Shown piece by piece: positions 2,275 to 13,522 of a stretch of DNA of 64,000 nucleotides; position 1 is the first letter of the stretch; each line of letters opens with the position of its first letter. The notes under the pieces were generated by a model. The model did no database searches, was not told where the DNA came from, and was given only the letters and a program-made list of their open reading frames with translations. This DNA comes from Escherichia coli (GTDB taxonomy: Bacteria; Pseudomonadota; Gammaproteobacteria; Enterobacterales; Enterobacteriaceae), in assembly GCF_024700885.2 (NCBI RefSeq), contig NZ_CP117016.1, one strand, 5' to 3'. A program made the translations under genes and the position numbers.

Positions 2275-2664
2275 TTACCTCCAGATGCGTTGCTGGAATG
2301 TGCGGGATGGACGCGGTGGGCGTTCGGAGTAAGGCAATCTGACTGAGATTATCCAGTGACGGTAGTCGAGGCTAAGGGCTTTTTTAACCTCGTATCCGCG
2401 CCTGCGGTAACACTGAATTATCCATTCAGCCTGCTCTTCAGTGCATGGTGGATGCTGGAACCAGTCCGATTTGAATGCATGAAAACGCCGTCCGCACCTG
2501 CTGGCAAAGACGGCAGAATCATCAGAATTGTGTAATTTGGTATCGTGCGCCATCGGTTGTCTCTGCTGGCGCAGCAGGTGCCAGTTGTTCAGGCTGGCGT
2601 ATAAAGTATAAATAAACTGGTTCCAGTGTAAAGCCCCTACATTAATGGAATAAAAGTCAAACAA
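2275..2664 (-). CDS. hypothetical prophage protein (position of rem in Qin-like prophages); true start may be an internal Met
   Basis: 129-aa ORF directly upstream of and abutting the DUF968 gene; no recognisable motif. Confidence 0.3.
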   Translation of the reverse strand: MFDFYSINVGALHWNQFIYTLYASLNNWHLLRQQRQPMAHDTKLHNSDDSAVFASRCGRRFHAFKSDWFQHPPCTEEQAEWIIQCYRRRGYEVKKALSLDYRHWIISVRLPYSERPPRPSRTFQQRIWR

Positions 2665-2919
2665 CAGATTGTTGGGATAAACACAACGCTTATTATTAAA
2701 AGCGATTAGATAAATTAAATTTTAATGTTATGCAATTTTACCAGATCATCATAACATCTCGTTTGAAACCACCGAAACAACAACCATATCAATATTGATT
2801 ATGTTAAAGTGAGTAAATATGGAAAACAACAAATCTGCACATTACGCTCCTTTTTTATCTGTGATACTTTTTGTTTTATGCTGTGTGTGGGCATTATTTT
2901 TATAAAAATATTCACAGAT

Positions 2920-2943
2920 AAAATAAACCCGCCGAAGCGGGTT
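2920..2943 (-). terminator. rho-independent terminator at the 3' end of the hok transcript
   Basis: On the minus strand, hairpin AACCCGCTTCGGCGGGTT followed by a T-tract (plus strand aaaataaacccgccgaagcgggtt), about 70 nt downstream of the hok stop. Confidence 0.55.
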
Positions 2944-3011
2944 AAGTGCGGGTGCATTGAGGATGCCTGACACATCCGAGGTGGCGAGGGATTTCTCCCT
3001 CGCCGGGTCTC

Positions 3012-3167
3012 TTACTCCTCAGGTTCGTAAACTGTGAAGACAGCGACCTCCGTCTGGCCGGTTCGGATTCGTACCTCGCAGAGGTCTTTCCTCGTTACCA
3101 GTGCCGTCACTATGACGGTTAAACAGATGACGATCAGGGCGATTAACATCGCCTTTTGCTGCTTCAT
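3012..3167 (-). CDS. hok: Hok/Gef-family type I toxin (51 aa membrane peptide)
   Basis: Minus-strand ORF below the 60-aa cutoff of the ORF track; translation MKQQKAMLIALIVICLTVIVTALVTRKDLCEVRIRTGQTEVAVFTVYEPEE is essentially the HokD/Hok sequence as I recall it. Structured GC-rich 3' region and upstream leader present. Confidence 0.85.
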   Translation of the reverse strand: MKQQKAMLIALIVICLTVIVTALVTRKDLCEVRIRTGQTEVAVFTVYEPEE

Positions 3168-3424
3168 AGCCTGCTTCTCCTTGACCTTTCGGTCCGTAAG
3201 AGGCTAATCTCTATGTGTCGCATAGATATGGCCTCAGATTAATGTTAAACGTCTTGCAGGACGCGTAATGTTACCTGGGGCTTTTCTCTATCTGCCGTTG
3301 GTGTTCATGCCCGAGGCAGATAGCCTCAAGCACCCGCAGTCATTCTACTTAACTAAGATTTCCCCGCAAACCGTTTTTGTCCAGCACAATAAATATCCAA
3401 CTAAACCAATGGAGTTCGCTGTAT

Positions 3425-6606: not shown

Positions 6607-7032
6607 TCAATGCACAGCCACAATATTTCCTGCAGGGCCACCACGATTCATCTGGTTGAAACCAGCGATCGCCACTGCGACAAAATCATCAGCGTCTCTC
6701 ACCAGTCGTTCCCGCGTCTCCACTAGTTCCCGAAAATAGGCTGAGCTATGACTGCGCATTCGGGCCACCAGCAGAGGTGGCATTGCTTTTTCGATAGCTG
6801 GTAACAACGCCTGAATTTTTTTAACCGCATCAGGGGTGTCTTTCTCCACCCAGCGGAAAATTTTCTGAGTATTGCGAGCCAGGGCTTCCGGATGGCTGTC
6901 GTCATACAGTTCCGGGAACGTCATTCCCAGCTCGAAATACGCTTTGGTAATTTTCACAGCCGGTACTTTTTCGCCGTCCGGATGCGCCCAGGCATTCATC
7001 GCCATGCGGATGTGTTCATGCTTGATTTTCAT
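6607..7032 (-). CDS. YdaT-like prophage protein
   Basis: 141-aa ORF MKIKHEHIRMAMNAWAHPDGEKVP... matching my recollection of Rac YdaT; follows the cro-like gene with ATGA overlap. Confidence 0.6.
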   Translation of the reverse strand: MKIKHEHIRMAMNAWAHPDGEKVPAVKITKAYFELGMTFPELYDDSHPEALARNTQKIFRWVEKDTPDAVKKIQALLPAIEKAMPPLLVARMRSHSSAYFRELVETRERLVRDADDFVAVAIAGFNQMNRGGPAGNIVAVH

Positions 7033-7283
7033 GAATCAACTCCCATCAGCTTTTTCGTAGTAGTTTTATTCCTGCCAATAGTTAAAATTGCATCGGCAGA
7101 AAATAATCCGTTTGATGCAAGAGCGATTTTTTCAGCGTAATTTGTTTCGCCGGTATATTCTGTGCGAGGCAATTTTCCGTTATCCATCCATTTATAGATT
7201 GCTCTTTGGCTGACACCACAAACGTCGGCCACAACAGCAACGCGAACAGTTTTGATTACATCTTCAAGTGTTTTCTGGTTCAT
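7029..7283 (-). CDS. Cro-like / YdaS-like HTH regulator
   Basis: 84 aa from internal Met (MNQKTLEDVIK...); HTH-like segment VCGVSQRAIYKWM; divergent from the DicA-like repressor gene. Start chosen to leave a 79-bp operator region. Confidence 0.55.
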   Translation of the reverse strand: MNQKTLEDVIKTVRVAVVADVCGVSQRAIYKWMDNGKLPRTEYTGETNYAEKIALASNGLFSADAILTIGRNKTTTKKLMGVDS

Positions 7284-7362
7284 ATCACCCTCACAATGTG
7301 AACTTTGAGTACATGCTATAACAGAACTGACAGTACATTCAAGAGCGAATATCATTGAACTT

Positions 7363-7782
7363 ATGGTTCATGAAGATAAAGCGCGTAAAGAGTTCGCCAG
7401 TAGGCTTGCGCTAGCCTGTGAAAACGCTGGTTATGAACAACATGGAAGGCAGGCAGAAATTGCCCGTCGAATGAAATTAACACCAAAAGCGGTTAGCAAA
7501 TGGTTTAATGGCGAAACAATTCCTCGCCGGGAGAAATTAAGGGAATTAGCAACACTAATAGGAACAACACCAACCTATCTTTTGGGAGAGGATACAGAAG
7601 AAAGTGGACAGGTACGTTTCTATCAGGAGTTAAATCCAAGACAAAAAATCATCATTGACCTTCTGGACGAGCTCCCTGACAGTGAGACAGATGAACTTTT
7701 AAAAACTCTTGAAGAGAAAAAACAGAAGTACAATGCAATTTACGAAGAGTTAGCACGAAAGAAAAAACAAAAAGCCTCTTAA
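7363..7782 (+). CDS. DicA/RacR-like XRE-family HTH repressor (immunity repressor)
   Basis: 139-aa ORF with N-terminal HTH and acidic C-terminal helix; heads the ydfABC-dicF-dicB module as dicA does in Qin. Confidence 0.6.
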   Translation: MVHEDKARKEFASRLALACENAGYEQHGRQAEIARRMKLTPKAVSKWFNGETIPRREKLRELATLIGTTPTYLLGEDTEESGQVRFYQELNPRQKIIIDLLDELPDSETDELLKTLEEKKQKYNAIYEELARKKKQKAS

Positions 7783-8079
7783 ACCAGCATAAATCCGGTA
7801 GCGCCTTCCTCCGGGTTTGTGCTTCACTTTATCCCATCTCATTTTTTTACACACAAAATGTACTAAAAGTACTTTACAACAATGAACGCAAAGTACATTA
7901 TATACCTACCACCCACCCCGCCCCACAGAATGCAGGGCAATACTTCGAGTTACCAGGCAGTGGTCAGGGGTTAAGTAGCCAGCCCGAGGCGTAAGAACAT
8001 GACGGCAGGGTTCAACTTTAATAACTATGCAGCAGGTTTTTGTTCCGCTACCCCGGCGTTAAGGGGAAATGAGGTCAGC

Positions 8080-8954: not shown

Positions 8955-9007
8955 TTTCTGGTGACGTTTGGCGGTATCAGTTTTACTCCGTGACTGCTCT
9001 GCCGCCC
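8955..9007 (+). ncRNA. dicF: DicF small RNA (ftsZ-targeting sRNA processed from the dicB operon transcript)
   Basis: 53-nt stretch tttctggtgacgtttggcggtatcagttttactccgtgactgctctgccgccc followed by TTTTT; matches the DicF sequence as I recall it and sits between ydfC and dicB. Confidence 0.75.
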
Positions 9008-12151: not shown

Positions 12152-12355
12152 ATGAGCAGCTTATTTTTAACCGAAGATGAATTGCTAATATTAACGGGCT
12201 GCAAATATGCAAGCCACCAGCGAAAATGGTTAATGGAAAACGGGCTTCCGTTCTATACCAATCGTAGTGGCAAACCGATTGTCAGCCGGGATCTATTTAC
12301 CTGCAATAAAACTTTACCACCACGCGAGGTAGAGCCGAATTTTGGTGCGATCTGA
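12152..12355 (+). CDS. xis: excisionase (Xis-like)
   Basis: 67-aa ORF immediately upstream of and overlapping (ATGA-type) the integrase start. Confidence 0.6.
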   Translation: MSSLFLTEDELLILTGCKYASHQRKWLMENGLPFYTNRSGKPIVSRDLFTCNKTLPPREVEPNFGAI

Positions 12356-13380
12356 TGGGAAGACGAAGGAAAAATCCTGAACACGAAAAATTACCTCCAA
12401 ATGTATACCCAAATAAATATAGTTATGTATGGAAACCAACATCCAGAGAATCTGTAACACTAACCGCCATCAAGGATGGTTTAGCTGCTTTATGGAAAAA
12501 GTATGAGGAAACTGTAAATAATCGCGATCGTGCAATGACATTCGGTCGCTTGTGGGAAAAATTCCTCGCCAGCGCCTGTTACAGTGACCTTAGCCCAAGA
12601 ACACAAAAAGATTATCTGCAACATCAAAAAAAGTTGCTTGCCGTATTCGGTAAGGTACCAGCGGATTCCATAAAACCAGAACACATCCGTCGATACATGG
12701 ACAAAAGAGGGGAACAGAGCAAAACGCAAGCCAACCATGAAAAAAGCAGTATGTCCCGCGTTTACAGTTGGGGATATGAGCGAGGGTACGTGAAGGTTAA
12801 CCCATGTGCAGGTGTAAGTAAATTCAAGGCCAAAAACCGCGAACGATATGTAACCGACAAAGAATACCAGGCAGTATTAAGCGTTGCACCTCTTCCTGTT
12901 TTTATCGCAATGGAAATTGCCTATCTGTGTGCAGCGAGGGTTTCCGATGTGTTATCGCTGAAATGGGAGCAGATTGGAAACGACGGGATCTTTATCCAGC
13001 AAGGGAAAACAGGGAAAAAACAGATAAAAGCATGGAGTCCACGATTACAGGCGGCGATCGAAAAAGCAAAACAGTTACCAACATCCGCCTATGTAATCAG
13101 CAATCAATACGGCAACCGATATATGTACAAAGGCTTTAACGAAATGTGGGTAGAAGCAAGAAATCGCGCAGGCAAAATTTCAGGTATTTTAACCGACTTC
13201 ACCTTTCATGATCTGAAGGCGAAAGGAATTTCAGACTATGAAGGAAGCAGTCGGGATAAGCAACTTTTCTCTGGTCACAAAACCGAGGGGCAAGTGCTAA
13301 TCTATGACAGGAAGGTTAAAGTTTCACCGACACTTGATGTCCCGTTACCTGAAAATATTCCAAGAAAATATTCCAAGTAA
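12355..13380 (+). CDS. int: lambda-family tyrosine integrase
   Basis: 341-aa ORF starting MGRRR... like lambda Int; transcribed toward the tRNA-Ser 3' end, which lies 52 bp downstream. Confidence 0.85.
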   Translation: MGRRRKNPEHEKLPPNVYPNKYSYVWKPTSRESVTLTAIKDGLAALWKKYEETVNNRDRAMTFGRLWEKFLASACYSDLSPRTQKDYLQHQKKLLAVFGKVPADSIKPEHIRRYMDKRGEQSKTQANHEKSSMSRVYSWGYERGYVKVNPCAGVSKFKAKNRERYVTDKEYQAVLSVAPLPVFIAMEIAYLCAARVSDVLSLKWEQIGNDGIFIQQGKTGKKQIKAWSPRLQAAIEKAKQLPTSAYVISNQYGNRYMYKGFNEMWVEARNRAGKISGILTDFTFHDLKAKGISDYEGSSRDKQLFSGHKTEGQVLIYDRKVKVSPTLDVPLPENIPRKYSK

Positions 13381-13432
13381 TTCCAAGTGTGATTTTTGTC
13401 ACTGACTTAATGATGTATAAGTGATTGAATTT

Positions 13433-13522
13433 TGGCGGAGAGAGGGGGATTTGAACCCCCGGTAGAGTTGCCCCTACTCCGGTTTTCGAGACCGGTCCGT
13501 TCAGCCGCTCCGGCATCTCTCC
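13433..13522 (-). tRNA. serU: tRNA-Ser (anticodon CGA)
   Basis: Reverse complement reads GGAGAGATGCCGGAGCGGCTGAACGGACCGGTCTCGAAAACCGG...CTCTCTCCGCCA, a 90-nt class II tRNA with anticodon CGA and encoded CCA. Confidence 0.9.

Follow-up and report, generated by a model that had tools for sequence, protein, structure and literature searches.

Genes and candidate control sites

The window, by which we mean the whole 64,000-nucleotide stretch of Escherichia coli DNA that was analyzed, carries a putative prophage immunity region in which a cro-like gene and a repressor gene diverge from a 79-bp interval at 7284-7362 (Table 1). The limits of this interval agree with those given in an earlier note on this DNA, as the cro-like gene starts with a CAT at 7281-7283 on the minus strand and the ATG of the repressor gene is at 7363. 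A Pfam search with the repressor returned HTH_3 only, with the S24 peptidase domain absent, and in alignments a DicA-type tail of about 50 residues stands in place of the S24 domain. In a comparison with PDB sequences, P22 C2 was the only match to the repressor, and a weak one (E 0.006), the cro-like protein had none, and neither result was informative on specificity.

Table 1. Coordinates of genes, predicted promoter elements and candidate operators in the window (positions counted from its first nucleotide; a dot marks features for which a strand does not apply).
Feature	Position	Strand	Description
YdaT, functional equivalent of CII	6607..7032	-	Pfam YdaT_toxin; E 6e-80 to PDB 8bt1 (CP-933P YdaT), 4e-90 to 3c4r
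YdaT operator OM, TTGATTTTCATGAATCAA	7022..7039	.	zero mismatches to TTGATT-N6-AATCAA; at the cro/ydaT junction
HK022-type Cro homologue, 84 aa (WP_001072337.1)	7029..7283	-	60% identity to HK022 Cro, E 1e-33
Shine-Dalgarno of the cro-like gene, GAGGGTG	7287..7293	-	5 nt upstream of the ATG at 7283
OR1-equivalent, GTGAACTTTGAGTACAT	7298..7314	.	one mismatch to ATGWACT-N3-AGTWCAT; contains the first AGTACAT
Predicted PR -10, TATAGC	7315..7320	-	between OR1 and OR2 (7-bp gap)
OR2-equivalent, CAGAACTGACAGTACAT	7322..7338	.	two mismatches; contains the second AGTACAT
Predicted maintenance promoter of the repressor	7327..7355	+	CTGACA (7327-7332), 17 nt, TATCAT (7350-7355)
Predicted PR -35, TTGAAT	7337..7342	-	16-nt spacer to the -10
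OR3-equivalent, TTGAACTTATGGTTCAT	7355..7371	.	two mismatches; centered on the repressor ATG
Immunity repressor, 139 aa (WP_000233320.1)	7363..7782	+	HK022/933W-type HTH (~aa 1-77) and DicA-type C-terminal domain
OL operator, ATGTACTAAAAGTACTT	7858..7874	.	one mismatch; overlaps the -35 of the PL/dicB-operon promoter
Predicted PL-like promoter	7873..7901	+	TTTACA, 17 nt, CATTAT; from promoter scan
OL operator, ATGAACGCAAAGTACAT	7882..7898	.	one mismatch; within the PL-like promoter (spacer and -10)

Two copies of AGTACAT in the interval had been interpreted in the earlier note as a plausible operator pair. The first lies at 7308-7314 as described, whereas the second, placed at 7335-7341, is actually at 7332-7338 and was off by 3. 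AGTACAT forms the right-hand half of the near-palindrome ATGWACT-N3-AGTWCAT (17 bp; W = A/T), and its interpretation as an operator half-site holds, but the count of two does not: three candidate sites are present at OR, and a further pair, designated OL, is located outside of 7284-7362. The right half of OR3 coincides with repressor codons 2-3 (Val-His), and, as OR3 is centered on the ATG, these codons might have to co-evolve with the repressor's own DNA specificity. OR2 overlaps the predicted -35 elements of both PR and the maintenance promoter. A scan with the 17-bp pattern ATGWACTNNNAGTWCAT at up to three mismatches resulted in 11 matches, compared to 4.61 +/- 1.94 expected (0 of 100 shuffles reached 11); at up to two mismatches the window contains six matches, five of them within 7298-7898 and one elsewhere in the 64 kb.

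The two OL sites are 24 bp apart and are located just 3' of the repressor stop codon. The PL-like promoter reads into ydfA-ydfB-ydfC-dicF-dicB, genes that are annotated in a 100% identical record, and the DicF small RNA (76.7 bits, 8956-9007, plus strand) is found downstream of it. A sok antitoxin RNA (100.8 bits, 3165-3335, minus strand), which implies a hok/sok locus, lies beyond the replication genes. The ORF list holds no cargo ORF, including any of the paaA2-parE2 kind, from the end of the repressor gene to OL (7782-7858), whereas in CP-933P the paaA2-parE2 toxin-antitoxin genes separate the repressor gene from OL. Among the loci examined, relatives do carry cargo at this location, namely HigB/HigA in Salmonella (L003, 3553-4220) and a 480-amino acid AAA/SMC-like ATPase in Raoultella (L006, 3808-5250); in lambda, rexAB is found here.

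Promoter prediction, a check that the earlier note had suggested, gave a mixed result. The maintenance promoter was called by the scan with 10 of 12 matches, but the predicted PR -10 was not, as its sixth base is not T. TATAGC is a weak -10 element and counts against the OR reading. Relatives have CATAAT, CTTAAT or TATAAT at this position and TTGCGT or TTGAAT at that of the -35, and the pR annotation of 933W gives CATAAT and TTGCAA, respectively. Since the -10 falls in the gap between OR1 and OR2, the predicted start of PR lies under OR1. When 80 prophage copies from E. coli were compared, the substitutions found across the 121-bp OR segment were concentrated at 7314-7317, i.e. the last base of OR1 and part of the predicted PR -10, and variants of TATAGC in these copies include TATAGT, TATAGA, TATAAC, TATACC and TATGGC. 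This variation may reflect either promoter tuning in resident prophages or relaxed constraint.

The elements of the maintenance promoter, CTGAYA or CTGAAA followed by TATNAT, keep their position in 93 distinct upstream segments from related loci (described below), and the pM annotation of 933W has the same elements. The -10 ends 7 nt before the repressor ATG and a Shine-Dalgarno sequence is absent, so a leaderless or almost leaderless mRNA is predicted for the repressor. The cI mRNA of 933W carries a Shine-Dalgarno sequence according to a review (PMC5977221), which conflicts with a simple leaderless reading for this HK022/933W operator family. PaaR2 of CP-933P and lambda cI are leaderless (PMC8630535), and CP-933P resembles the window both in this predicted property of the repressor gene and in having OR and OL operator sets (PMC8630535).

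Likeness to the HK022 and 933W operators

A search of HK022 with the pattern from the window located GTGAACTTATGGTTCAT at -65, CGGAACTGATAGTACAG at -41 and TTGAACTTATGGTTCAA at -8 from the cI ATG. HK022 and the window share all three positions, the motif TGWAC-N5-GTWCA within the 17 bp, and a 14-nt gap from the cro ATG to OR1; OR3 of HK022 overlaps the cI ATG as its equivalent overlaps the repressor ATG in the window, and its sequence is almost identical (TTGAACTTATGGTTCA). The OL pair of HK022 has the same 24-bp spacing, with ATGTACTATTGGTACTT (compare 7858-7874) and, 24 bp after this partner, ATGAACTTTAAGTACAT. Two additional sites were located in HK022 (L255, 1163-1179 and 2209-2225): beyond OR there is a far operator at a distance of 332 bp, and OL includes a third site that is 53 bp away from the pair. 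No equivalent of either was found when the window was scanned with the 17-bp pattern. The number and spacing of the HK022 sites agree with the footprints of Carlson and Little as described second-hand in PMC8053113.

The GenBank record of 933W (AF125520) annotates oR1, oR2, oR3, pR and pM at equivalent positions, with oR3 overlapping the cI ATG. The 933W sites are at -64, -40 and -8, the first two being 1 bp off from the -65 and -41 of the window. Experiments of the Koudelka laboratory defined the 933W operator as a symmetric 15-bp site with G at position 2, A at position 4 and C at position 5, whereas position 3 favors T over A; there are five natural sites (PMC3317979). The window sites have in common with these the half-site core GWAC and a T or C at position 6 (PMC3317979). 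Both 933W and the window have three OR sites and only two OL sites, and the pR and pM hexamers are in the same places. The window is thus assigned an OR and OL of the HK022/933W type.

The proteins fit this assignment in part. In a search of phage-genome proteins, the identities of the repressor's DNA-binding domain over approximately 72 residues were 58% with HK022 CI and 51% with 933W CI. A stretch of it, TPKA(V/I)SKWFNGE, is near-identical to that of HK022 CI and corresponds to recognition-helix residues S41-K46 of 933W, and the 933W CI recognition-helix residues K42, S45 and K46 are conserved in the window repressor. The helix-turn-helix domain, the three OR operators, a divergent HK022-type Cro and the OL operators were thus all found, while S24 was not. 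HK022 CI has an S24 autocleavage and oligomerization domain where the window repressor has a DicA-type C-terminus, and as HK022 CI is taken to bind cooperatively through the S24 domain, cooperativity across the 24-bp spacing is only putative for the S24-less repressor of the window. The CI of 933W also has an S24 domain, unlike the window repressor, and, according to reports, binds adjacent sites without cooperativity. Elsewhere in the region, HK022 has cII where the window has ydaT with OM, 933W has a lambda-type CII instead of YdaT, and PL of HK022 leads into nun/N-type genes whereas the PL-like promoter of the window leads into the dicB operon.

We consider it probable (roughly 0.85, as judged from sequence) that 7284-7362 is the right operator/promoter region in the immunity switch of a lambdoid prophage, and that its operators belong to the HK022/933W type. 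The observations on which this is based are the sites themselves, the exact conservation of their positions, their co-inheritance with the DNA-binding domain, and a layout and motif identical to those of HK022. The proposal of the earlier note that the interval is the divergent control region of an immunity switch is supported by the positional conservation in 231 loci described below, by the identity to HK022 in layout and motif, and by the close similarity to 933W.

A point on which the window operators might depart from these phages is the effect of OR2 on the maintenance promoter. The predicted -35 of this promoter falls inside OR2, at about -33 from the repressor ATG, and activation mediated by OR2, as reported for 933W and other lambdoids (PMC5977221), is not obviously allowed by such an arrangement. 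The sites could then be true operators whose occupancy at OR2 represses the repressor promoter, giving purely negative autoregulation unlike that of lambda, HK022 and 933W. The conserved CTGAYA at the center of OR2 is consistent with this, as class II-type activation would need a center near -41. However, activation of PRM followed by its repression is reported for the repressor of 933W, in which the geometry is the same (PMC5977221), and PaaR2 in CP-933P activates its own promoter at low levels (PMC8630535). Purely negative autoregulation is rated as rather unlikely, but with more weight than the alternative readings discussed below.

Conservation of the sites and the alternative readings

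The comparative sample comprised 231 loci with the same DNA-binding domain, defined as the first 77 residues of the repressor, at 67-100% identity. After removal of duplicates these loci yielded 93 upstream segments, which originate from E. coli, Salmonella, Raoultella/Klebsiella and metagenomic viral contigs. A first scan of viral contigs using an alignment of the DNA-binding domain returned 100% identical E. coli copies only, and the diversity of the sample was reached via queries of the S24 type. As the 17-bp pattern was derived from the same window sites that it describes, the comparative data are the independent support for it. Sites are located at exactly -65 (OR1) and -41 (OR2) from the repressor ATG in 93 of 93 segments, always 24 bp apart, and at the -8 site (OR3) the TGAAC and GTWCA cores are near-invariant whereas the adjacent cro leader diverges freely. 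The downstream OL pair has the 24-bp spacing in 214 of the 231 loci, at 494-3111 bp past the ATG. In four loci (L008-L010 and L174) cro is absent and the operators are kept, which indicates that the sites follow the repressor domain. The S24-type repressors of these four loci (2446-3000) face a Q-antiterminator gene that is followed by holin and lysis genes, a much-reduced form of the switch layout.

The specificity control consisted of 22 loci (129.5 kb) that have the same types of C-terminal domain and another DNA-binding domain. No match to the 17-bp pattern at up to two mismatches was found in these 22 loci, and their half-sites are instead TTAAC, CTACC, TGTTAG and GTTTACC. In at least one control group (L210-212) the geometry is almost unchanged (-64, -40 and -8), and another (L242-253) also has a palindrome centered on the repressor ATG; both halves of the ATG-centered site change together in the control groups. 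Different half-sites accompany a different DNA-binding domain, so the motif follows the DNA-binding domain and not the C-terminal domain. In several specificity groups the right half of the ATG-centered third operator can be read from repressor codons 2-3, with GTTCAT giving MVH, GTTAAG giving MVK and GTAGAA giving MVE, and the non-coding left half changes to match.

This result bears on the description of the repressor as DicA-like in the earlier note, which is appropriate for its overall homology and C-terminal domain but not for its operators. Over its full length the repressor is 29% identical to DicA (112 residues, E 5e-15), the LPxSE...EEL block near its C-terminus aligns with DicA, and the C-terminal part is in common with an O157 prophage repressor. 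Qin and the window each encode a short S24-less repressor with a homologous C-terminal domain, next to a divergent cro-like gene, and in both a PL-like promoter precedes the ydfABC-dicF-dicB operon; in Qin, dicCp and dicBp have three operators each (PMC10448788). On these grounds the interval could be a DicA/DicC-type control region in which the repressor recognizes DicA-like operators and the AGTACAT copies are incidental. The DNA-binding domain, however, is only distantly related to that of DicA and far closer to that of HK022 CI (58%), and the motif tracks this domain rather than the C-terminal one. The comparison with the dicA-dicC operators that the earlier note had recommended was run and found DicA sites to be of the TGTTAG type, unrelated in sequence to those of the window, so that HK022/933W is the right comparator for the operators. 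DicA-type operators (TGTTAG...CTAACA) were accordingly rejected as candidates, since the Qin intergenic and dicBp sequences are unlike the window sites and the window holds no site of the TGTTAG-N-CTAACA type; conversely, the 17-bp motif of the window has no match near dicA in Qin. A DicA/DicC-type control region is thus already contradicted as far as the operators are concerned and is considered very improbable.

Comparison with CP-933P of O157:H7 similarly separates the modules. YdaT is nearly identical in the two and an exact OM is present at the cro/ydaT junction, and the motif and position of OM in the window are those footprinted in CP-933P (PMC9986795). The PaaR2 operators, by contrast, are 18-bp palindromes with the consensus GTTTAGTAA, four of them in OR, and differ from those of the window, and YdaS of CP-933P belongs to a different Cro family from the window Cro.

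It could also be argued that AGTACAT recurs by chance, or simply as promoter sequence in an AT-rich stretch, and that the repeats do not serve as operators. The AGTACAT 7-mer alone is not enriched in the 64-kb window (7 matches versus 4.07 +/- 2.05 expected, with 12 of 100 shuffles reaching 7), and the 17-bp pattern was drawn post hoc from the same sites. However, four of the seven AGTACAT copies lie inside 591 bp, two on either side of the repressor gene, and each of these pairs sits in 17-bp sites with starts 24 bp apart; the chance that some four of seven random positions would fall as close together is approximately 1e-4. Chance matches would also have to account for exact positions kept in 93 distinct segments despite diverging flanks, for the recurrence of a similar pair, again spaced by 24 bp, at a second promoter in 214 of the 231 loci, and for a layout that is that of the experimentally defined HK022 operators and closely similar in 933W. 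A chance origin of the sites is regarded as exceedingly unlikely.

The interval would be mostly coding if the cro-like gene began at 7355 (108 amino acids), 7 bp from the repressor gene; the ORF coordinates confirm this spacing, the ORF from the ATG at 7355 is open and uninterrupted, and this start is used in the record of phage Tritos, but 7355 has no Shine-Dalgarno sequence before it, the operators and both promoters would have to serve as coding sequence for the N-terminal extension, and the start is very unlikely given the evidence for the internal Met at 7283. The latter, the start preferred in the earlier note, is the RefSeq/PGAP start and has the GAGGGTG listed in Table 1; GGAGG or GAGGG is present at the same place in the three relatives checked (L003, L004 and L006), which also carry in-frame stops 3-6 codons upstream of the Met. 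All 59 distinct homologues of the cro-like protein (48-60% identity) start at the equivalent Met, and HK022 Cro (MNEVTF...) aligns from residue 1.

The proposed switch, its distribution and its surroundings

From the layout we infer a lambdoid switch of the HK022/933W operator type in which OR1-OR3 are interleaved with two back-to-back sigma-70 promoters. To the left, PR would transcribe the HK022-type cro, ydaT and the replication genes; to the right, the maintenance promoter would transcribe the repressor gene, the ATG of which is at the center of OR3. A repressor dimer is expected to bind OR1 and OR2 via its HK022-like helix-turn-helix, and also the pair at 7858-7898. Repressor bound at OR1/OR2 and at the OL pair would block PR and the PL-like promoter of ydfABC-dicF-dicB, and once OR3 is occupied the maintenance promoter would be silenced. 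For the Cro homologue we expect binding to the same sites with the opposite order of preference, and YdaT at OM would drive an establishment promoter. By analogy to DicA, which is relieved by the antirepressor Rem and not by RecA (PMC10448788), the S24-less repressor would likely be inactivated via an antirepressor; a consensus LexA box was not found in the 64-kb window at up to three mismatches, and no SOS-controlled antirepressor was identified.

The immunity region is common. At least 80% of a 1.1-kb query around it is present in 1044 of 5426 (approximately 19%) complete E. coli genomes, and the region is also present in phage Tritos, of which a literature search returned no mention. In the 231 loci the DNA-binding domain is fused either to a DicA-type tail (E. 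coli and Salmonella) or to an S24 peptidase (Raoultella, Klebsiella and metagenomic phages), and in phages of Klebsiella, Raoultella and Citrobacter the same DNA-binding domain and operators go with an SOS-cleavable S24 repressor. This is a natural example of domain shuffling, in which one DNA-binding domain with its operator set is combined with two C-terminal modules. If the specificities truly coincide, the repressors of resident prophages would cross-talk with their S24 relatives. We tentatively suggest that, in that case, joining an HK022-type DNA-binding domain, operators and Cro to a DicA-type tail that RecA cannot cleave would give SOS-proof immunity against HK022-like phages, a possibility to which we give somewhat less than even odds.

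The assignment provides a specific operator code and promoter layout for a widespread E. coli immunity region, and ties it to HK022/933W and not to DicA. The region is a mosaic of known modules with an operator family that is already characterized and is thus real but ordinary, and the HK022-type assignment leaves the understanding of such switches unchanged.

The prophage adjoins a tRNA-Ser gene (anticodon cga) at 13433-13522, within the region 12355-13522, and a 341-amino acid ORF just inside this end of the prophage is probably an integrase. Four tRNA-Asn genes follow the tRNA-Ser gene (14514-55653), an arrangement that resembles the serU/asnT-asnW-asnU-asnV region of the E. coli chromosome.
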